Part shown: one piece after another, positions 2,185 through 25,260 of the stretch
Layout of the letters: each line of letters starts with the position of its first letter
How positions within the stretch are numbered: the first letter of the stretch is position 1
Sequence record: PP400780
DNA from: Escherichia phage FL18
Length of the DNA: 64,000 nt
Strand: one strand, 5' to 3'
The notes under the pieces: generated by a model
Seen by the model: the letters and a program-made list of their open reading frames with translations, nothing else
What the model was told of the DNA's origin: nothing
Database searches by the model: none
Made by a program: the position numbers and the translations under genes

Positions 2185-5100
2185 CTAATTTAACCTGTGG
2201 TGGATTCACGGGGTCTCTTGGATTTCCTACATTATCGATTAACCGTTGTTCAACCAAATCTCTAAATCTAGAGAATGTTGTTCCGGACGCATCAAATAAT
2301 GGGCTCATCAGTTTACGTCGTTCCGATGGAAGTTGACCTTGAAATATGGAGTTATTGTTTTCAGCGTTATAATCTTCAGGCAATGGATAATCTTGATCAG
2401 CCATAGGGCCTATTTCATATATCGCTTTACCTGTAATAGGGTCAAACTCAACATTTCCTTGTGGGTCTAATTTAGCCACTCGGTCGGCATATTTAGTCGG
2501 TAATCCAGAATCCCACTTATAGTTTTTGTATTTATTAATAATGGTTTCAACATGTTTAAGTGTTAATCCGGTGTTAATAAACATTGTGAGAAGGGTAATT
2601 GCGATAAATCCAAATCCAACCGGATGAACAAAACGTAATACGTCTGATTTCCAACGAGATGATGGAAGTTTAGATTTAATCTTCATTACGTAGTATGCTC
2701 TACCACGATTTATGTAATCGATGTTGTTCTGAGAAAGCTCTTTACCTTTAATACCACGAACAATTTCACCTTCAAACCCAGGGAGTCTTTCAGCTTTAAC
2801 TTCCTGTCCTTGGATTAAACGTCCTAAGAGGTTGTGAATTGTTACAGTCCATTGTAATTTACCTTTAGAGTAACTTCTCTCGATATACGTCACATTACAA
2901 CGTCCTGTAGCGGTGTATATGGTTTGTCCGACCAAATCTTCTGTCAACGAATCAGATTCAATGATGATATCATATTCGGTCCCGGAACTAGATTCAATTT
3001 CAATTTCAACATCTTCATTATAAAGCACTTTAAACAAGAATTTATATGATGCTTCAGTTCCTTTAGTTGAATAGAAGTCATAACTTCTTGATTCAAAGAA
3101 ACGAGACACTAAATCGCGTTTTTCGGCGTTTAAGTAAATGTTTCGTTTATAAATCTCAGACCATAAATATTCCCACGCATGTTCTTCTCGCGGATATTGA
3201 TTTTTAATAAGATTCAAAAGGTTATTATAATGGGTCCCATAACCGTCAGAAAGATACTGAATATAAGCCTCGCAGAATGCTTCGAAGTTTGTATTATCTA
3301 AAAGATAAGACTCCGGCATCATTGTAGTGAGCAATGGTCGTAAATCTGGGTCTGCAATACCGTTCTCTTCTACAGGAGTCCATGTGGTATCTTTTTCTTG
3401 GTTTTGTAACGATGCTGTTAAGAATATATTAGTAGGCTTCCAAATTATAGAAACATTATCTCTAACACGATAACTAAAATCATAATAAGAAATAATCTCA
3501 CCTGATGATTTATAGAAAATCATGCCGGATGCATATTTTTTAAATCCGGTGAAATCTACGTTAGGCATCACTATTGTACAGTCACCGTCCTTCCAATATT
3601 CATGAACTTCACGGTCTGAAGAACTAAGTGGATGATTCTCAATAACCTTAGTGTAAAGTAAATCAGAATAAATTACAACGGCCTTGTCTGAGTTATTAAT
3701 CCAACATCGAGTACCAGACTTTCTAGAATAACTAAAGAATGGCTCAGCATAGTATTCCATCGGTTGAGGAGTGAACGATTCCCATTGAGAGTCTTCAGTT
3801 GAAATAAATGCCATCATATGATAATGTTTATCAGCCAACCATTCGCGAGGATACTCATATTTAACAGCCCCGATTAAACCGTACTTGACTTGTGTTTTTT
3901 GGTCATCAACAATATCTGATTCTAAAAATTTAAAATTACTAGATGAAATAGATAACTCAACACCATCAGTAGACATACTGGTGTACCCAGGTTCAATACG
4001 ACGGCGTTCTTCTTCAGTATTACCAAACACACGTTTAAATGTGCCGGCATCATGGTCTAGAACGTAAACACCCTTATCAGCAGAATCAACAATAGGAGTG
4101 GTCCTCGGGTCGTCATTAAGATTAACAACTTCACCGATAATCAGTGCAAATATTTTACCACCGACAGAATCCATTTTATAGCAAACTGCCTTAGGGTTAC
4201 CTGTGATGTTAAATGTTTCTTGTTCAAACAAACGTTCGGAATATGTCGGAGATAACGGGTCTGAATCAATAGGGGCATTACTAGTTTTAATAAAACGAAC
4301 TTTATCTCGAGCAGCAACGTATACATAATCGTCATTGCAAACGATAGCTTCTGCAATACGTGATACGTTAGCAGGTAATGATGCGTAGTTACCAAATATT
4401 TCTACATCAAATCCTAAATTTAATTGGTCACCAATTTTAGCAAATGTTATATCTTGAGAACTAAATCTCACATCATCAGCAGACCATCGAACGTCTGTTG
4501 ATTTACGACCGTAAAATAATTTATCGTACCCAAGAACATACGTGGTGTAATCTGTCTGGTAATACACTGTTCTTGATACAGGATACCCTACACGGTCATT
4601 AAACAATTTAACCGATTTCCAGGTTTGTCCCTTATCATTAGAGACTTTAACCACAGGCTGATACCGTTCAAACAAATAAAGAATTCCTTCGGATTCCATC
4701 AAATAAACACGGTTTATATCATGACACACTTGTTGAATCGAACCTTGAATTTCATGATACTCATTTTCGCCAATAATGAAATTTTTAATAGATGAAATAT
4801 CCGCATAAGCAGGGCTAAATTGGAACGATTCATTCATTAGAGCTGCCATTATAGTGTCGTTATTAAAATCGACATAAGCCATGTTGTTATTTGTAAATTT
4901 TTCTCTAATAAAAGTGTTAGCCAATTGCATTTCAATCATATGTTGAAATGTATACGCGTTAGTCTGAAATGATTCAAATATTTCGGTATATACCCAATCG
5001 GATCTCTCGAAGCCTTCGGCGGCAGTTGATACACGAATAATATAAGAAGTTAACGGGTCTAAGCTACTTTCGAACCAGTTGCTATTAGGAGTATATCCTA

Positions 5101-17709: not shown

Positions 17710-17779
17710 TTTACAAACTCTTGAGAGCAGAGTATAATGCTCTCGTTGGATAATAAACCACCAATTGAAAGGTAATAAT

Positions 17780-18373
17780 ATGAACACACTGAAGAAACTT
17801 GTTGAATTCATCCGCACTAAACTGGGTACTGCTATGGCTAAAAATCTGACTGTCGAAGAACAGTATAACGCAGCTGCAGATAAGTTGATCACCCAAATCA
17901 AAGAACTAAAAACGGCTTCTGTTAAATCTATTAATGAAGAAAAACGTATTCGCGAACTTGTTAATGAAAAGAACAAGCAAGCCGCTTCTAAGGAACGTGA
18001 AATTCGTAAGCTCCTGGCTGAAGGACAAGATGTTACTATGCATGCTAAGCTTGGTCTTCTGTATCGTCGAACCGCCGAACAACTTAATACAAAAGCTGAC
18101 GGGTATGCCGCTATGCGAATTGAAATTGCTCGTAAGGTGGTTGAACTTGATGATGCTCGTCAGAATCTGGCAATCAAACTCGAATACATTCGTGAAACTC
18201 GAGCAGCCAATGCCCTTGGTATCTCTACGGCCGATGATGTAATTGAAATCGCTGCACTGACTAAGGTTGATATCGAAGACACTCTGACTCGTGTTGAAAC
18301 GTTCAATGGCACTCCAGCTGGTGTTGAAACCACTTCTGCTGATGTACAAGAATATATTAACTCTTTGAAATAA
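17780..18373 (+). CDS. hypothetical coiled-coil protein
   Basis: 197 aa from ATG 17780; charged/helical composition. Confidence 0.5.
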
Positions 18374-18382
18374 AATAATACG

Positions 18383-18405
18383 GAGGACTCCGGTCCTCCT
18401 TTTGG
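18383..18405 (+). terminator. intrinsic terminator (ggaggac-tccg-gtcctcc + TTTT)
   Basis: seen in sequence. Confidence 0.55.
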
Positions 18406-18422
18406 ATAATAAAGGAGTTAAC

Positions 18423-19025
18423 ATGCGAAACCAAAATAATGATATTGACTCAATGTTCGAAGAGTTCCGAGATAAGGTAAATCCACCTACGTCTTTAGTT
18501 GATTCATTACGATATGTTGCAACTGGACGTAAATGGTACTGGTCGTCTTCTTATGAGACCACCGAGAAAACGGCTAGCCATAGCAGAAAATCTTTATTAG
18601 CCCCAGGTATTATGATTCATGATATCGGAGCTATTGCTAAACTAGTTGCAGACCATGATATTAGATTCACTGATTTCGTTGCTACTACATGGTCTGTTTG
18701 TTGTTTAAACACCGAATTGGAATATATCAGTGAACGTTCAGATGATTACATAGGCTTTAGAGACAAGCTTTTAAGGTCTAACATGTTTTATATTGATACA
18801 GAAGTTCTAGTCAATAATAAAAAATACTACTTCACTTTAATCGTCGATTCTGAAACTATGTATGAAGGCAAGCCTTTGCTTAAGAGAGTTGATGCTTTAA
18901 GTGCTATTGATGCGCTTTATGAAACTATGGTTGTTAGTCCTAATTTCACTAACAATTTAATCCTTGAGCAATTTATTATGGAATGTAGAGAATATGTCAA
19001 AGCCAACCCTGTACATGCCAATTAA
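18423..19025 (+). CDS. hypothetical protein (C-terminus contains FIMECR)
   Basis: 200 aa from ATG 18423 after AAAGGAG. Confidence 0.5.
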   Translation: MRNQNNDIDSMFEEFRDKVNPPTSLVDSLRYVATGRKWYWSSSYETTEKTASHSRKSLLAPGIMIHDIGAIAKLVADHDIRFTDFVATTWSVCCLNTELEYISERSDDYIGFRDKLLRSNMFYIDTEVLVNNKKYYFTLIVDSETMYEGKPLLKRVDALSAIDALYETMVVSPNFTNNLILEQFIMECREYVKANPVHAN

Positions 19026-19389
19026 GCCCTGGGCATACGAATACAAACGTAAATTAATCCCAAATGAAGTACTATTTGGCCCTATTTTAGCTTTAGCATT
19101 TTTAATCTTTATGATTATAGGAGCCGTTTTAGATTCTAGTGAAGTTATATCTTCTGATGCGGTGTTTTTACTTATTATACCTGGGTCGTTTATTGTGCCA
19201 TTTTTATTAATGCCTATTAACTGGGTGGGATATTGGTATCAAGGCCGTCATCACAGAGCTCGAGTTCGTGAGTGGAAAGTTCAGTGCGCAAAAGCCCAAG
19301 CTCAGTATGATGAAGCTGTTAAAAAGTATGAATATGAAGAAGCTATGGAATTCGTTAAGGAAATAAGATGCAAAAGCCTCAACTCTTAA
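19015..19389 (+). CDS. membrane protein
   Basis: hydrophobic segments; start uncertain (18994 or 19015). Confidence 0.4.
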   Translation: MPIKPWAYEYKRKLIPNEVLFGPILALAFLIFMIIGAVLDSSEVISSDAVFLLIIPGSFIVPFLLMPINWVGYWYQGRHHRARVREWKVQCAKAQAQYDEAVKKYEYEEAMEFVKEIRCKSLNS

Positions 19390-19727
19390 CCATATGGCCT
19401 TCTCTTGGTGAGAACATTCTAATTTTTATTATGAGTATTGGCATGGGATTTGCCTTTGGATTAGTTGGATTTCTTATTGACGGCGTTGTGTTAGGATTTA
19501 TAGGGAACACTGGTGGATTCACAGACCAATGGCAGGACTTACGGTATACCAAAGCCTTTGCATCCATCGCATCATTTTGTACTGTAGTCTATTTTTACTA
19601 CGATTTTATAAACCATAACAAGAAAAATAAAAAGGTTTACGCTTCTCAAATGATTAGTTATAATGAACTCCTAGCTAGACGTGAAAATGAAACAATCGAA
19701 AACTTTATTAAGGAATGTAGAAAATGA
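19368..19727 (+). CDS. membrane protein ending NFIKECRK
   Basis: 119 aa; SD AAGGA 7 nt upstream. Confidence 0.5.
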   Translation: MQKPQLLTIWPSLGENILIFIMSIGMGFAFGLVGFLIDGVVLGFIGNTGGFTDQWQDLRYTKAFASIASFCTVVYFYYDFINHNKKNKKVYASQMISYNELLARRENETIENFIKECRK

Positions 19728-20029
19728 GTAAGATTATTGAAATTAAAGTACCAGAGTTTAATGATGCCAAATCCGCTTCAGATGCAATTTATAAACTTCT
19801 GAATCAAGCTGAACGTATCGAAGAAGAAGCAACAAAGATCGCAGACCAATATGCCGTATCATTTTCTGTAGGTGATTATGGTAGCGGTCGTACTTATTAT
19901 CCTAAGGGTGAAATCGTATCCCAGTGGATGAAAAATGAAATTGAAAATAACGGTGGCTATGTTAAGCGTGAAGGTAATGGTTACGTTATTACTGAAGGTG
20001 CTTGGGTTTCGTCTTCTGCGTTGTGCTAA
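19724..20029 (+). CDS. small protein, WVSSSxxC-terminus family member 1
   Basis: 101 aa; ends GAWVSSSALC. Confidence 0.5.
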   Translation: MSKIIEIKVPEFNDAKSASDAIYKLLNQAERIEEEATKIADQYAVSFSVGDYGSGRTYYPKGEIVSQWMKNEIENNGGYVKREGNGYVITEGAWVSSSALC

Positions 20030-20038
20030 GGAATCATT

Positions 20039-20311
20039 ATGTCTAAAGAACAAACCGAACTGGCTGAAGCTGTAGCAAAAATCTATGCAGCTATTGAGGC
20101 TGCCAAAGAAATTGCTGATAAACAAAACACAACATTCGATTTGTACCCAGCTTATGGTATGGGTGGAACCTATCATTCACCAGGACATCTTAAAGCCGAT
20201 CTTGAACGTTGTACAAAAAACGGCTATGCTGAATGGGCTGACGTTTACCAATACGACTACAACCTGAGCCTCGAAACTGGTGGTTGGGTCGCATCTTCTC
20301 ACACTTGCTAA
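20039..20311 (+). CDS. small protein, WVSSSxxC-terminus family member 2
   Basis: 90 aa; ends GGWVASSHTC. Confidence 0.5.
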   Translation: MSKEQTELAEAVAKIYAAIEAAKEIADKQNTTFDLYPAYGMGGTYHSPGHLKADLERCTKNGYAEWADVYQYDYNLSLETGGWVASSHTC

Positions 20312-20320
20312 GGAAACAAT

Positions 20321-20518
20321 ATGTCTCGTGAATTAGATTGTGCTGTACGTACGGCAGTAGCTGCCCTGGAAAACCTGTTCCAAATTGCAACAGAAGAACG
20401 CGAAGAAGTTACATTATGGATTGAAGATAACGCAGGTCTGAATCTCCAGAACGCAATCTCATTATCAAATAATAGTATTACTGTTCAAGGCTGGGTATCA
20501 TCTAGTTATTCTTGCTAA
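20321..20518 (+). CDS. small protein, WVSSSxxC-terminus family member 3
   Basis: 65 aa; ends QGWVSSSYSC. Confidence 0.5.
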   Translation: MSRELDCAVRTAVAALENLFQIATEEREEVTLWIEDNAGLNLQNAISLSNNSITVQGWVSSSYSC

Positions 20519-20522
20519 AACA

Positions 20523-20560
20523 GTTTACAACAAGATAGGGCTATGTTATAGTAGTCCTAT
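20523..20560 (+). promoter_or_regulatory. PeSL
   Basis: GTTTACA + stem-loop tagggctatgttatagtagtcctat. Confidence 0.55.
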
Positions 20561-20580
20561 CAAATTAAATGGAGTCCACA

Positions 20581-20820
20581 ATGATTTATTACGAAAGTAT
20601 TGGAACCAAAGTGGTTGCTAAAACCATTACTCGTGAAAAGTTTGCAAAGATATTTGATATGCGTTATAAAAAATCTGAACACAAAGGCATCCGATTCGAA
20701 GATGCGCACTGTACAATTTGCCCTTATAATGAAGACATAAACGGTACAATCGTTCCATTGGTAGAAGCTTCACATGATGACCTTTGGGATGAATATAATA
20801 TCGCATGTCGTGAAATTTAA
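20581..20820 (+). CDS. hypothetical protein
   Basis: 79 aa from ATG 20581 after TGGAG. Confidence 0.45.
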   Translation: MIYYESIGTKVVAKTITREKFAKIFDMRYKKSEHKGIRFEDAHCTICPYNEDINGTIVPLVEASHDDLWDEYNIACREI

Positions 20821-20848
20821 GTTAATGAATTAATCCGAGGAAAATATT

Positions 20849-21805
20849 ATGATGTTAGTTATTGGTTCTCGTGCACTTCACTATCACGGTCTTATTGATT
20901 CTAGCGCTATCAAAAATAGTGATTGGGACTTTATTGCGGACCAAGGTTCTTGGAATGCATTCAAAAATCAAATGATGGGTGTATATGTCCACCAAGATAA
21001 CCATGATGTCCAAGTTTTCAAATGCTTCCATAATGGACGCGAAACTCATTTTGAAGCATATATTGTTCCGGCAATCACTAATGTCCGTGAATTAGTCGGT
21101 GAACTCACTCCTGAAGATTTCACGTCTTCTTATGACCTTTTAAAATACGCCAAGAAAAATTTGACTAAAGACCGTTTGAACGGGTTTTACTGGGCAACTC
21201 CTGAGATATGTCTTGCAATTAAGATGTCTCATCGTTTCAAGAAAAATAATCCATTCTTTTTAAAGACTATGAACCATATTCAGTATCTTCGTGGTAAAGG
21301 TGTTACACTGAACGATGAACTTACTGAAATTATGCTGAAACGCCAGAAAGAAACCTTGAACTATGCTCACCCGGTTCTTGACACTTCTAAAAGTGCGTTC
21401 TTTAAAGATGACATCTATACATATGACCATGATACTATTCATGAAGCCATTGCACTAACAGACCGTCCAGCGTATACATTTTATATGAAAGACGGTTCTG
21501 AAGTCATGACCTCACGAGAGAAGTTCGAATCGTTACCAGAAATGGTCAAATTGGCCGGTGTATATGAAGAATCATGTGTACTAGCATTAGAACGTTCTCA
21601 GATTCCTAATGACTTTAAAATTAACCCTGAAGCCAGTTTCATGATGGCATTGGAAAAGGTCTGTACAAGCATCACCTCCGGTTGGTTCCGTGAATACGCC
21701 TGGGAAAGCTACAGCAAAGTAGTAAGTATGTACCAAAGTTTAGGACATGACGATTACGTCAAACGTTTCAAACAAAATTTCCATATGGTAAAACCTTTCA
21801 AATAA
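20849..21805 (+). CDS. hypothetical protein (318 aa)
   Basis: long ORF with SD GAGGA; no motif recognised. Confidence 0.5.
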   Translation: MMLVIGSRALHYHGLIDSSAIKNSDWDFIADQGSWNAFKNQMMGVYVHQDNHDVQVFKCFHNGRETHFEAYIVPAITNVRELVGELTPEDFTSSYDLLKYAKKNLTKDRLNGFYWATPEICLAIKMSHRFKKNNPFFLKTMNHIQYLRGKGVTLNDELTEIMLKRQKETLNYAHPVLDTSKSAFFKDDIYTYDHDTIHEAIALTDRPAYTFYMKDGSEVMTSREKFESLPEMVKLAGVYEESCVLALERSQIPNDFKINPEASFMMALEKVCTSITSGWFREYAWESYSKVVSMYQSLGHDDYVKRFKQNFHMVKPFK

Positions 21806-21817
21806 TTTCGCAAAACT

Positions 21818-21854
21818 GTTTACACAATTATAGGACTATGTTATAGTAGTCCTA
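21818..21854 (+). promoter_or_regulatory. PeSL
   Basis: GTTTACA + taggactatgttatagtagtccta. Confidence 0.55.
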
Positions 21855-21875
21855 TTAAAACATGAGGAGAATATT

Positions 21876-22181
21876 ATGAAATTAGGCGAAACCAATCGAA
21901 TCGGTCTTTTTACAATATTTGCATCACCTTTTTACGTAGCTCTTTCTGTTGCAGTATTACAAAAGGCTTACAGTATGGATGGTGTTCCTGGTTTTGTATT
22001 CTTATCACCGTTTTTATTATTCGTCGGAGCTTTGTTATTATATGCCACGACTAGTTTCGACCATAACGTCTGGGTTAATTATAAATGTAAATTGTCTGAA
22101 GAAGAACACGCAGAAGCTCGTAAAAAAGCTATTGAATCTACCAATCTAGAAAATTTCATTAAAGAATGCCGAGGAAAATAA
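21876..22181 (+). CDS. membrane protein ending NFIKECRGK
   Basis: 101 aa, two hydrophobic helices. Confidence 0.5.
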   Translation: MKLGETNRIGLFTIFASPFYVALSVAVLQKAYSMDGVPGFVFLSPFLLFVGALLLYATTSFDHNVWVNYKCKLSEEEHAEARKKAIESTNLENFIKECRGK

Positions 22182-22182
22182 T

Positions 22183-22869
22183 ATGAATAGTTCTAAAGTG
22201 TTTAATAGTCAAGCTCGTGCAGTAGGTGGTTTTGCTCATGCGATTAAAAACGACCAGATTAAAAACGAGCCTATGTTCTTTAACTGCGATTTGAATTTTG
22301 CTTTTGATAATGGCGGTCCAATTACTCGTAGCTTTATCCAAAATCTCCCTGACGATTGGAAAGACTCGGATGTAGTATTTGATTCACGAGTCCACATGCT
22401 GATGCCTGGTTGGTACCCTGCTATCCCAGGTTATCACCATGACGATGTACCACGCCCGGATATTCCGGTTGGTCAACACTTTATTACTGCAGGACAACCT
22501 GACTATGACAATCCTCGCTATTTGTCTGAACATATTCTTGGTCTTGTTAACGCTGATGTGTGTCCTACTCATTTTGCAACAGGAACTGCAGAGTTCAGTC
22601 AGATTCCTGATGGTGAACTTATCTATCGCCAGTGGCACAAAGAAGTCCTCGAAAAAATCGAAAAAGGCGAACTAGAGAAATGGGAAGCTCCAGATCGTAC
22701 TCTTCTTCAGTTTGATTGGCAAACATGGCACACTGGTTCTCGTGCAATTAGTAACGGATGGCGTTGGTTCGGGCGTGTATCTCGTAATACAGACCGAGTT
22801 AAAAAGATTACCAATGAAATTCGTGTCAATGCCCAAGTTTATCTGGAATTCCCTATGGAAGGCTGGTAA
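22183..22869 (+). CDS. hypothetical protein (228 aa)
   Basis: ORF with SD; no motif recognised. Confidence 0.5.
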   Translation: MNSSKVFNSQARAVGGFAHAIKNDQIKNEPMFFNCDLNFAFDNGGPITRSFIQNLPDDWKDSDVVFDSRVHMLMPGWYPAIPGYHHDDVPRPDIPVGQHFITAGQPDYDNPRYLSEHILGLVNADVCPTHFATGTAEFSQIPDGELIYRQWHKEVLEKIEKGELEKWEAPDRTLLQFDWQTWHTGSRAISNGWRWFGRVSRNTDRVKKITNEIRVNAQVYLEFPMEGW

Positions 22870-23348
22870 TGATTAACAATAATATAGACGATGGCAACGA
22901 AGGTATTTCGTATTATTCAGTAGATTGGACAGGATGTCCATCCTACTTAGTGAAACATATTTGCCAAGAATTTAAAATCAACCAGCCAGCAGGTATTATC
23001 GTGAACAGATACATTAATGGATATCAACCTATGGATGAAGTAATACGAACAACTCAAGCTGAGCTTGAAAAGTTTTTCAATAAGTGCCAATGGATAACAG
23101 GATGGATTATATTTGTACCGTCAGTGTGGTTTTTTAGTACTAAAGTAAGTGCCTTTGCTATACTAGATATTATCGCTATCTTATTAGCATCTACTATCGT
23201 AAGTATAATTGGCGGTATAATTGGTGGAGGTACTGTAGGCATCATTATTAATCTTGTTAAAAGTAGTTTACAAGAACGTAAAGACAAGATAAAGGCCAAG
23301 AATAATGAAGTTGAACGTTTTATTACCGAATGCAGGAATTTGAGATGA
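22869..23348 (+). CDS. membrane protein ending RFITECRNLR
   Basis: 159 aa; Gly-rich TM segment IIGGIIGGGTVGIII. Confidence 0.5.
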   Translation: MINNNIDDGNEGISYYSVDWTGCPSYLVKHICQEFKINQPAGIIVNRYINGYQPMDEVIRTTQAELEKFFNKCQWITGWIIFVPSVWFFSTKVSAFAILDIIAILLASTIVSIIGGIIGGGTVGIIINLVKSSLQERKDKIKAKNNEVERFITECRNLR

Positions 23349-23581
23349 GTATAGCAATTTACATTAAATCAGAATCATGTGATAGTTATCTGTACACATA
23401 CGATAAAGATGTGTCAGAAGAAAAAATCAAAGACGATCTTAATATGGACCTTGATATGTTCTGTCCTATTGCAGATTACAAACTTGCGGTCTCTAATAGT
23501 GAAAGTCCATCTAAAGAAACGCGCATTGAAGAATTTATATCTGAACTAATGGCCAAATCATGGGACCGAGATGATGAGTAA
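23345..23581 (+). CDS. hypothetical protein
   Basis: 78 aa from ATG 23345. Confidence 0.4.
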   Translation: MSIAIYIKSESCDSYLYTYDKDVSEEKIKDDLNMDLDMFCPIADYKLAVSNSESPSKETRIEEFISELMAKSWDRDDE

Positions 23582-24029
23582 GAAAAATAAAGTGAAAGAA
23601 CTATCAGCCGGTATTATTTTCCTTACCGAAGATAAAGAATTATTCATGGGGCGTGTAACTGGTTCTCGTCATAAAGGTGCATTAGCTCATCGGTGGGATA
23701 TTCCTAAAGGCCGTGTCGAACCTGGCGAATCTCCTATTGAAGCCGCTATTCGTGAATGCGAAGAAGAAACTGGGTTTACACAATATGACCCTGCCTTCCT
23801 GAAAGACCTAGGTGAACATCATTACTCAGACAATAAGAATATTCATCTGTTCCTATATACCATCCCTGTAGAGCACGAGCAATTCAGAAACAGTGTTTGT
23901 AATTCATATCATACATTCCCAGACGGACGACAGATTCCTGAATTTGATGCATTCGCTTTAATTAAACCTTCTCAATGGGAATATGTAATGGGCAAATCAT
24001 TATATAAGGTGCTCACTACACTCCTATAA
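23571..24029 (+). CDS. nudE: Nudix hydrolase
   Basis: Nudix box GRVEPGESPIEAAIRECEEETGF; 152 aa; adjacent to lysozyme gene as in T4. Confidence 0.75.
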   Translation: MMSKKNKVKELSAGIIFLTEDKELFMGRVTGSRHKGALAHRWDIPKGRVEPGESPIEAAIRECEEETGFTQYDPAFLKDLGEHHYSDNKNIHLFLYTIPVEHEQFRNSVCNSYHTFPDGRQIPEFDAFALIKPSQWEYVMGKSLYKVLTTLL

Positions 24030-24063
24030 GTAATAAATACCTCCTATAAACGTGGGAGGTATT

Positions 24064-24552
24064 ATGAATATATTTGAAATGCTTCGTAATGACGAAGGTC
24101 TTAGACTGACTTTATACAAAGACACTGAAGGCTTTTGGACGATTGGCATAGGCCATTTGGTAACAAAGAACCCGTCTTTAGCCATAGCTAAAGCTGAACT
24201 TGACAGAATTATCGGACGTAAATGCAACGGTACAATTACCCTTGATGAGGCTGAAAAGCTATTTAATGAAGACGTTGATAAAGCCGTTCGCGGAATCTTG
24301 GGTAATGCTAAACTTAAACCGGTATATGATTCTTTAGATGCGGTTCGTCGATGTGCATTGGTCAATATGGTCTTCCAAATGGGTGTAGCAGGCGTCGCCG
24401 GTTTTACTAATTCTCTTCGTATGCTTCAACAGAAACGTTGGGACGAAGCGGCAGTAAATCTAGCCCAATCTAAATGGTATCGTCAGACACCTAATCGCGC
24501 GAAACGCGTAATCTCAACATTTAAAACAGGAACTTGGAAAGCGTATATATGA
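24064..24552 (+). CDS. e: endolysin (T4 lysozyme family)
   Basis: [15 protein letters not shown]...TIGIGHL...; length about 162 aa. Confidence 0.9.
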
Positions 24553-24830
24553 AAACATACAATGAATTTTTATCAGAATCTATTCTTAACGAAGCTACTG
24601 ACACATTTGCAACTAAGCTAGGTGCAGCTTTGGTTGAAGCCGAAAGTCTATTAGCACGTATTTCTGAACTTGCTAGTAAGATAGATACTCGCAAATTTGA
24701 ACGTACCAGCGATATCGCTAAGCTTGAAGCCTTGTTACGTATGTGCGATAAACCGGAAGAAATCGCTAAGAACGGCTCGCTGATGAAACAACGTCTTGAA
24801 AAATATATTTCAGGCGCTTCAGAAAAATAG
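24549..24830 (+). CDS. internal-protein-like, [13 protein letters not shown]
   Basis: ATGA overlap with e; 93 aa. Confidence 0.6.
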
Positions 24831-24999: not shown

Positions 25000-25260
25000 A
25001 TGAAAATGTATCAAGAATTTATCGTTGAAGCAGATGCCAAAGGTCCTAAATTTAAAGTTAAAGCTTTCATTGGTGATGCGGAAGACTTTGGCTCATTAAA
25101 ACGTAATGGGTATTCTTTCTTAGGTGGCAATGGTAAAGAAATCAACACCTATGCAAAACGTAGTGAAATTGCTTATGTTGTAGCAAGTCCTAAAGTAGAT
25201 GTTGACGATATTGGATACGATTTTAACAACTTCGGAATTATTTCTGGCGGTAAAGCTTAA
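25000..25260 (+). CDS. internal-protein-like, CTS MKMYQEFIVE
   Basis: 86 aa. Confidence 0.55.
   Translation: MKMYQEFIVEADAKGPKFKVKAFIGDAEDFGSLKRNGYSFLGGNGKEINTYAKRSEIAYVVASPKVDVDDIGYDFNNFGIISGGKA

Follow-up and report, generated by a model that had tools for sequence, protein, structure and literature searches.

A conserved C-terminal F-[IV]-x-x-C-[RK] tail on proteins of the e.6 gene block of T4-like phages, and its candidate role as a docking helix

In a 64,000-nucleotide stretch of Escherichia phage FL18 (record PP400780; hereafter the window), several proteins encoded close together downstream of the homologue of the T4 gene e.6 end in the same short peptide, FIxECR, placed just before the stop codon. 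We find that this motif is real, and that it is a protein-level feature, conserved as a peptide, and no mobile DNA module. It recurs at the same place in several genera of T4-like phages, and its free positions carry the ribosome-binding signal of the gene that follows. As to its role, we put forward a shared docking or assembly helix belonging to a module with e.6 at its head, a reading for which we consider the case for and against to be evenly balanced.

Gene names in the window were assigned from the annotation of Escherichia phage RB69, to which, as to other Mosigvirus genomes, positions 18000-24600 are 97% identical. The motif genes sit between e.6 and nudE/e, all on the + strand (Table 1), and the order in T4 is identical (e.6-e.5-e.4-e.3-e.2-nudE-e); they are orthologues, in the same synteny, of T4 e.2-e.5 and of RB69ORF133c, known so far as 'conserved hypothetical, predicted membrane proteins'. 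The four open reading frame (ORF) ends and peptides given by the initial annotation of this DNA, those of e.5, e.3, 133c and e.2, are correct. The pattern FI.ECR matches exactly four times in the 127,996 six-frame residues of the window, against 0.033 expected from residue frequencies, and never in 60 first-order Markov simulations; all four copies lie on the + strand, in real genes, within 4.4 kb and 1-11 residues from a stop codon. When the pattern is relaxed to F[IV]..C[RK], seven matches are found against about 3.2 expected, the three extras falling in short or antisense ORFs. There is also a fifth, degenerate copy that had been overlooked, at the end of e.4 (...AMEFVKEIRCKSLNS-stop; EFVKEIRCKSLNS), in which the Cys is shifted by +2. 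A near-miss in the ORF135c homologue (20569-20820, ..EYNIACREI) was excluded, as its homologues drop the C-R pair (..NTYVAEI, ..NTYCYEI).

The initial annotation had raised the possibility that the shared ends form a 3' module spread by recombination, and had proposed a nucleotide alignment of the four gene ends as the check, with a lack of similarity beyond the motif codons as the refuting outcome. We aligned the four gene ends over the 18 motif bases and 45 nucleotides (nt) on either side, and the refuting outcome is what we see, so that the spread of such a module is not borne out. Identity between pairs is 0.29-0.47 in the upstream flank and 0.16-0.42 in the downstream flank, roughly the background for AT-rich DNA, and rises to 0.56-0.94 within the motif itself. 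Even there, synonymous sites differ among the four genes, with TTT or TTC for Phe, TGT or TGC for Cys, and AGA, AGA, CGA and AGG for Arg. A common coding sequence, AAGGAATG.AGA, had also been described for the four genes, whereas e.3 alone has AAGGAATGTAGA and the others read ATGGAATGTAGA, AAAGAATGCCGA and ACCGAATGCAGG.

To place the motif in a wider context, we took the block 3' of e.6 from 16 T4-like loci of several genera, among them Dhakavirus, Gaprivervirus, Marfavirus, Moonvirus, Winklervirus, Muldoonvirus, the Pseudotevenvirus RB43, an Aeromonas phage and IMG/VR contigs, and searched for [FW][IVL]xxC[RK] within 25 residues of the stop. This gave 45 distinct tails, all of them in the gene block just downstream of e.6: carriers account for 46 of the 415 + strand ORFs downstream of e.6, for none of 332 upstream and for one of 352 on the opposite strand. 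Tails were recovered from Dhakavirus, Gaprivervirus, Marfavirus, Moonvirus, Winklervirus and RB43, as well as from five unclassified IMG/VR contigs with an e.6 at 63-65% identity. Most loci encode three or four Cys-bearing tails, T4 two (e.5 and e.3) and RB43 one, and two loci have none. The codons again point to the peptide as the conserved entity, with Phe encoded by TTT in 30 tails and TTC in 13, Cys by TGT in 30 and TGC in 15, and Arg by all six of its codons, close to genomic usage (0.54/0.46 for Phe and 0.65/0.35 for Cys).

The consensus of these tails is [LIFV]-[ED]-x-F-[IV]-[K]-[EQG]-C-[RK]-[K], with an information content of 4.05 bits at F, 3.25 at I/V, 4.32 at C and 3.88 at R/K, and 1.9 bits at the hydrophobic position -3. 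The Glu of the window's 'ECR' is variable across genera (Q, G, S, N or D). By their spacing, residues -3, 0, +1 and +4 would form one hydrophobic face of an α-helix. The T4 proteins, although they share only 37-47% overall identity with those of the window, bear the same tail with no difference in kind: e.5 ends in ..EKFVKECREYVKAITIPSK (..EKFVKECRE..), e.3 in ..KEFVIDCRKIK and e.4 in ..MKFVKESRCKSQS (..KFVKESRCK).

The reference T4 sequence (NC_000866) is anomalous at e.2, which is annotated with 102 amino acids (aa). A 1-nt deletion in an A-run truncates the frame and a 1-nt insertion about 80 nt later restores it, so that the tail ..MFIEMPWRLRRQQKIFDEKKYAQNLNNFITECRKLK-stop is still readable in the 160-nt 'gap' before nudE that is annotated as intergenic (region 3492-3961 of the T4 locus extract). 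Other Tequatrovirus genomes have an intact e.2 of 162 aa, and for T4 the choice is between a genuine lesion of the stock and an error in the sequence.

How far the carriers are related was addressed by BLAST clustering and hhalign. The soluble e.5 proteins (180-306 aa) form one family, as the RB69/T4 and the Klebsiella/Serratia forms are homologous (97.8%). A second group of 88-140 aa has two transmembrane segments and a common build, namely a short N-terminus, often with K-P, then a pair of hydrophobic segments, 30-45 residues of Lys/Arg-rich helix and finally the tail. Within it, the alignment of e.3 with e.4 runs for 59 columns, through the second transmembrane segment and the tail (hhalign 85%), which marks them as two-transmembrane paralogues; with a third two-transmembrane family, e.3 can be aligned for 104 columns (56%). 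The e.2 protein has the same build plus an added N-terminal domain; it reaches 90% with e.3 in a forced global alignment, and its profile (phrog_2203) is weakly matched by 133c in the C-terminal half (E=0.0017), whereas the local matches of e.2 and 133c cover the tail only. Finally, a small soluble carrier of about 95 aa occurs in other genera and is absent from the window. The best local hhalign matches among e.5, e.2, 133c, the small soluble family and e.3 are confined to 10-23 C-terminal columns; e.5 shares just 10-12 tail columns with the other carriers, and hhalign detected no profile similarity beyond the tail between the membrane carriers and either e.5 or the small soluble family. The earlier description of the carriers as otherwise unrelated thus stands for e.5 against the rest and fails for e.3 with e.4 and for e.3 with the third family, with 133c weakly resembling e.2. 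Because basic residues follow the second hydrophobic segment and the loop between the segments is acidic, the positive-inside rule would place the tails in the cytoplasm.

The conservation of the tail is clearest in e.5. In an alignment of 15 proteins from the e.5 position, the C-terminal FIxxCRxxVK is the most recognizable conserved stretch, and in a nine-sequence family alignment that extends to Aeromonas-phage homologues at 15-18% identity, which keep the Cys and have lost the Arg, just seven columns are invariant, F184 and C188 among them. Four more remote representatives found by a full HMMER scan all read F[IV]xECR, and overall the tail is kept in homologues at 15-20% identity. On the metagenomic contig of one of these four, the e.6-e.5 arrangement seems to recur: a 196-aa ORF, the size of e.6, is followed by two genes of e.5 size, the second of which is the match to the e.5 family; the likeness of the other two ORFs is by size only. 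Database searches returned few relatives, 4 and 10 in word-indexed searches and 9 in the full HMMER scan, and the AlphaFold2 model of e.5 is thus built from a shallow alignment, with a mean predicted local distance difference test score (pLDDT) of 67 and a predicted template modelling score of 0.70. It places the motif inside a predicted helix, 179-194, in which the block 181-190 has a mean pLDDT of 82; structural comparison of the modelled fold gave no convincing relative. Where the Cys is replaced, as in the e.4 lineage (I, V, M or S) and in the e.5 homologues of Muldoonvirus WSPA (..IIHQARTRV.., with F to I and C to A), the substitutions are, on balance, more in keeping with a small or hydrophobic residue buried in the helix than with an indispensable chemical group.

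The protein at the head of the block, e.6, is its best-conserved member, found in 1101 phage records and reaching Aeromonas, Serratia and RB43-type phages. A gene of e.5 type directly follows it in 15 of the 16 loci, including the Aeromonas phage, RB43 and Muldoonvirus loci that have no tailed membrane proteins, and by gene order e.6 and e.5 form the conserved core pair of the block. The AlphaFold2 model of e.6 (39 sequences, pLDDT 75) has helices at 3-18, 25-80, 86-145, 151-161, 166-172 and 186-196, the layout of PspA/Vipp1/IM30 proteins with an N-terminal helix, a long hairpin (25-80, 86-145) and further short helices. A Foldseek search of the PDB returned Vipp1 for all seven top matches (probability 1.00, E 3e-3 to 2e-2). 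Next came archaeal CdvB2 and a further entry for Vipp1, 6zvr; the study behind this entry reportedly placed Vipp1 and PspA in the ESCRT-III superfamily. At the sequence level, the e.6 profile compared with PDB sequences found three Vipp1 proteins in collinear alignments at E 4.6-9.8, with no significant match to the PspA family model and none to Pfam PspA_IM30. On the strength of the modelled structure, we consider e.6 to be probably, with some reservation, a PspA/Vipp1-like helical hairpin protein of the ESCRT-III superfamily.

Existing labels for the block are of little help. One JGI record calls an e.6 homologue 'phage shock protein A'; many GenBank records label e.6 'host specificity protein', for which the family libraries searched gave no support. 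For e.2-e.6 and 133c, nothing useful came from Pfam, PHROGs, NCBIfam or PADLOC. The e.4 gene is labelled 'sulfurtransferase' in the record of Shigella phage JK45 (1127-1522) and among the features of the F27 and ESCO47 records; we reject a rhodanese-type sulfurtransferase, given a protein of 131 aa with two transmembrane segments and no functional match in Pfam, NCBIfam or PHROGs.

We propose a common docking helix because the tail is the one thing that the companion protein e.5 and the membrane proteins have in common. The motif would be the end of a cytoplasmic amphipathic α-helix with the consensus [LIFV]-[ED]-x-F-[IV]-x-x-C-[RK]-(K/R), closing a set of early, non-essential T-even proteins, namely the soluble e.5, the two-transmembrane e.4, e.3, e.2 and ORF133c, and the small soluble protein found elsewhere. 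Such tails might all bind one shared site, whether on the core of e.5, on an e.6 polymer or on each other, and could in this way tether the soluble e.6/e.5 pair to the inner membrane, much as bacterial PspA-type proteins are anchored by PspB/PspC or LiaI. Docking through a short C-terminal helix that several proteins share has precedents, for example the MIM1 of ESCRT-III proteins, which binds MIT domains, the clamp-binding tails that engage T4 gp45 and the C-terminal peptide of FtsZ. The phage tail resembles them as a short amphipathic C-terminal element that recurs on proteins of unlike build and has been kept far more strictly than their remaining sequence. The resemblance to Psp and Lia systems lies in the arrangement of the block, which starts with a PspA/Vipp1-like helical protein and continues with small membrane proteins with cytoplasmic helical tails; unlike those systems, it is phage-encoded and early-expressed, includes an extra soluble protein, e.5, with the same tail, and has no match to Pfam PspB or PspC. 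According to a review, PspA-type proteins commonly have small membrane proteins from neighbouring genes as partners (PMC7619361).

Several observations weigh against this proposal, in which the docking function, the identity of the partner and a Psp-like role of e.6 are all inferred. The e.2, e.3, e.4 and 133c proteins match no PspB, PspC or LiaI family in Pfam or NCBIfam and resemble them in build only, and we know of no counterpart in Psp proteins of a Cys-Arg tail common to the phage partners. The tail profile has no detectable similarity to the C-terminal helix of e.6, so that the tail as a mimic of that helix finds no support; the C-terminus of e.6 itself was rejected as an instance of the same motif or as MIM-like, ranking 35 of 41 family C-termini in the tail-profile comparison. 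The 45 tails share a phylogeny, and P values calculated on them overstate the evidence. The near-invariant Cys of most lineages could mean chemistry (metal, redox or modification) instead of packing. Finally, T4 e.2-e.6 are each dispensable in laboratory screens, which leaves the model with no phenotype to anchor it: each gene is Non-essential in the HIDEN-SEQ supplement, and each is 'Not Fit', with function 'UNKNOWN', in that of CRISPRi-ART. In the literature, as covered by an incomplete searchable library, we found no description of the shared tail, of the function of e.2-e.6 or of phage PspA homologues.

One specific form of docking was rejected, that of an ESCRT-III MIM1 motif. MIM1, with the consensus (D/E)xxLxxRLxxL(K/R), lies at the C-terminus of ESCRT-III proteins and binds the MIT domain. 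The phage tail reads F-[IV]-x-x-C-[RK] and not LxxRLxxL(K/R), its carriers are not ESCRT-III-like proteins and no MIT-like partner was found.

A bolder extension, which we regard as speculative and on present evidence unlikely, is that T-even phages encode a Psp/ESCRT-III-like membrane system of their own, in which e.6 would polymerize and the tail would serve as an address tag that plugs e.5 and a changing set of two-transmembrane proteins into one site, so that the system is anchored or regulated at the inner membrane in the early phase of infection. A link through the tail between small membrane proteins and a phage PspA/Vipp1-like protein, if real, would suggest phage control of host membrane integrity at that stage. 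Conservation of the e.2-e.6 block extends over a large group of phages that have been studied well, and the shared tail offers a cheap handle on it, with one bait peptide and three residues to mutate. Even if docking fails, the tail remains an annotation marker for the e.6 gene block.

Among the other explanations for the tail, the one that survives best is transfer of a 3' gene segment among unrelated genes through recombination, either as a recent mobile module or through ancient shuffling of tail ends followed by divergence. It draws on the fact that the tail is all that proteins with unrelated bodies (e.5, the small soluble family and e.2 in its N-terminal domain) have in common, and tandem genes ending in the same 18 bases could support unequal exchange. 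The recent version is excluded because the flanks have no similarity and synonymous differences lie within the motif; an ancient transfer is not distinguishable from convergent gain of a five-residue motif, and taken as a whole we hold this origin to be unlikely, though a serious minority view.

That the Cys, with the adjacent Arg, is a chemical site, such as a redox switch, a modification target or a ligand by which several tails together bind a metal or cluster, is considerably less probable. The Cys is invariant in 43 of 43 non-redundant strict tail segments, which follows by construction from a pattern that requires it; more telling is its invariance in the nine-sequence e.5 alignment, even where the Arg is lost, and the three or four Cys-bearing tails of most loci would suit a shared ligand. 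However, in e.4-type tails and in the e.5 homologues of WSPA the Cys gives way to I, V, M, S or A with the helix otherwise kept, e.5 has no conserved second ligand and e.6 no Cys at all, and the probable cytoplasmic location argues against disulfides.

A slightly weaker candidate still is the tail as the best-kept remnant of one diverged family of small membrane-protein paralogues, with no role of its own. The hhalign scores given above for e.3 with e.4, with the third family and, when forced, with e.2, the match of 133c to the e.2 profile and the common build described above, with the KP motif in the short N-terminus and a charged helix between the two transmembrane segments and the tail, all fit common descent among the membrane proteins. 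This descent does not extend to e.5 and the ~95-aa soluble family, which bear the tail with no homology to the membrane proteins, and in every family, down to the most divergent e.5 homologues, the tail is far better conserved than the rest.

We find it very improbable that the tail is a degradation, processing or targeting signal, be it a tag recognized by an AAA+ protease of the host or something akin to the capsid-targeting sequence of T4, MKTYQEFIAE, which is cleaved after I-x-E. Its extreme C-terminal position and basic end would suit a signal, and there is a superficial E-F-I-x-E likeness, with the N-terminus of a T-even internal protein as the second-best non-training match of the tail hidden Markov model. 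This match, however, has 5.1 bits where the best reversed-sequence control already has 4.4 bits, the Glu is not conserved across genera, the capsid-targeting sequence is N-terminal and has no C-R, and membrane proteins are not packaged into heads; we therefore reject the link to capsid targeting. To our knowledge, no degron shows the tail pattern.

A second layer of information lies in the bases of the motif. The motif genes all abut or overlap the next gene, and in the window the motif ends 2-10 nt 5' of the next start, with complementarity to the anti-Shine-Dalgarno sequence upstream of that start. The Shine-Dalgarno (SD) sequence takes different positions in the motif from gene to gene, with no fixed register. 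In 31 of the 45 tails, the best SD falls within the 18 motif bases or overlaps them. An SD core occupies codons 3-4 in 14 of 19 tails when the next start is 0-4 nt away, and in none of the 26 others (Fisher P = 7e-8), through the pairs K-E (AAGGAA), K-G (AAAGGA/G) and E-E (GAGGAA). Likewise, Arg is AGA or AGG in 14 of 16 tails with a start 5-16 nt away, compared with one of nine at ≥20 nt (P = 3e-4) and a genomic AGR share of 16%. These P values are generous, the sequences being related, but the pattern is still plain: the two free motif positions and the synonymous choice at Arg encode the SD of the neighbour, according to the distance to its start, because the genes are packed end to start. 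SDs embedded in the 3' ends of upstream genes are known from packed operons, which the window resembles in having AAGGA, GAGGA or AGGA 6-9 nt before the next ATG and ATGA overlaps; here, in contrast to ordinary embedded SDs, the signal occupies the free positions of a conserved peptide motif and shifts with the start distance, which makes the locus a clean natural example of a ribosome-binding site fitted into such positions.

The earlier suggestion that the motif codons double as the ribosome-binding region of the downstream gene therefore holds as dual coding and not as the reason for the motif. As sole cause, an RNA element for translation initiation or coupling, of which the peptide would be a by-product, is largely refuted and is the faintest of the possibilities considered here: the closeness of the next start, the 31 of 45 tails and a codon choice that strongly follows the SD window speak for it, whereas the SD falls on the K-E codons, on the C-R codons or after the motif depending on the gene, disappears from the motif when the next start is 20-82 nt away while F, I/V, C and R persist (e.5 homologues and the small soluble family), and leaves the third positions of the F and C codons to vary at about genomic frequency, in a TTT-ATT and a TGY that have no SD content. 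As F, I/V, C and R are unchanged in every SD register, they are selected as amino acids.

Table 1. Features of the e.6 gene block in the window (positions in the 64,000-nt stretch; TM, transmembrane segment)
Feature	Position	Strand	Description
Promoter-like site, sigma-70 type	17710-17738	+	Strong site, TTTACA-17-TATAAT, 11/12; 5' of e.6; consensus match only
e.6 homologue	17780-18373	+	197 aa; first gene of the block, conserved; no Cys; no motif
Hairpin	18382-18399	+	Between e.6 and e.5; perfect 7-bp, GC-rich stem, then T run (GGAGGACTCCGGTCCTCC TTTT)
e.5 homologue	18423-19025	+	200 aa, soluble; FIMECR at residues 184-189, nt 18972-18989; end ...LEQFIMECREYVKANPVHAN-stop
SD, e.5 to e.4		+	Weak TGGAA, 10 nt to ATG; T4 has TTAAGGAA there
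e.4 homologue	18994-19389	+	131 aa, two TM; degenerate tail EFVKEIRCK; FVKEIR at nt 19351-19368
SD, e.4 to e.3	19357-19361	+	AAGGA in K-E codons; 6 nt to ATG
e.3 homologue	19368-19727	+	119 aa, two TM; FIKECR at nt 19704-19721; end ...IENFIKECRK-stop
SD, e.3 to next gene	19710-19714	+	AAGGA in K-E codons; 9 nt to ATG 19724; stop/start overlap ATGA
RB69ORF133c homologue	21876-22181	+	101 aa, two TM; FIKECR at nt 22155-22172; end ...LENFIKECRGK-stop
SD, 133c to next gene	22171-22175	+	GAGGA in R-G codons; 7 nt; ATG 22183
e.2 homologue	22869-23348	+	159 aa; N-terminal soluble domain, TM, tail; FITECR at nt 23319-23336; end ...VERFITECRNLR-stop
SD, e.2 to next gene	23334-23337	+	AGGA in R-N codons; 7 nt; ATG 23345; stop/start overlap ATGA

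Two points of annotation and expression concern the motif genes directly. The RB69 record puts the start of e.4 at the ATG equivalent to 19015, whereas the upstream ATG at 18994 gives an N-terminus, MSKPTLYMPIKP, that is conserved with the annotated T4 start (MSKPSLYLPSKP..); because of this conservation we take 18994 to be the true start, and the RB69-type annotation is probably seven codons too short. The hairpin between e.6 and e.5 looks like a terminator or attenuator and may keep the level of e.6 above that of the genes behind it. Further sigma-70-type promoter-like sites, again consensus matches, lie at 20524-20552 and 21819-21847.

The block and its surroundings contain other conserved genes, two of which T4 does not have. 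These are the RB69ORF132c homologue at 22183-22869 (228 aa, ..HHDDVPRPDIP..NEIRVNAQVYLEFPMEGW), near-identical across genera, and a strongly conserved DUF7277+DUF7275 protein of 318 aa at 20849-21805. The RB69ORF130c homologue that follows e.2 (23345-23581) has a C-terminal pattern of its own, kept in all genera (..EEFISELMAKSWDRDDE, ..IMQDIFKQSWERDDG, ..IMEDLHSESWESRDE) and with no relation to the FIxxCR tail. Further downstream, 24534-24830 and 25000-25260 are genes of internal-head-protein type with capsid-targeting leaders (MKMYQEFIVEA.. in the second), the first of which is reached only from an internal ATG of a listed TTG ORF.

A second recurrent C-terminal motif, W-V-[SA]-S-S-x-x-C-stop, ends three tandem small genes at 19724-20029, 20039-20311 and 20321-20518 (..WVSSSALC, ..WVASSHTC and ..WVSSSYSC), the first of which belongs to phrog_899. 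At the same place, other T4-like phages have up to five such genes, with ends such as ..WVSSSMEC, ..WYSSSMQNC and ..WQPSSC.

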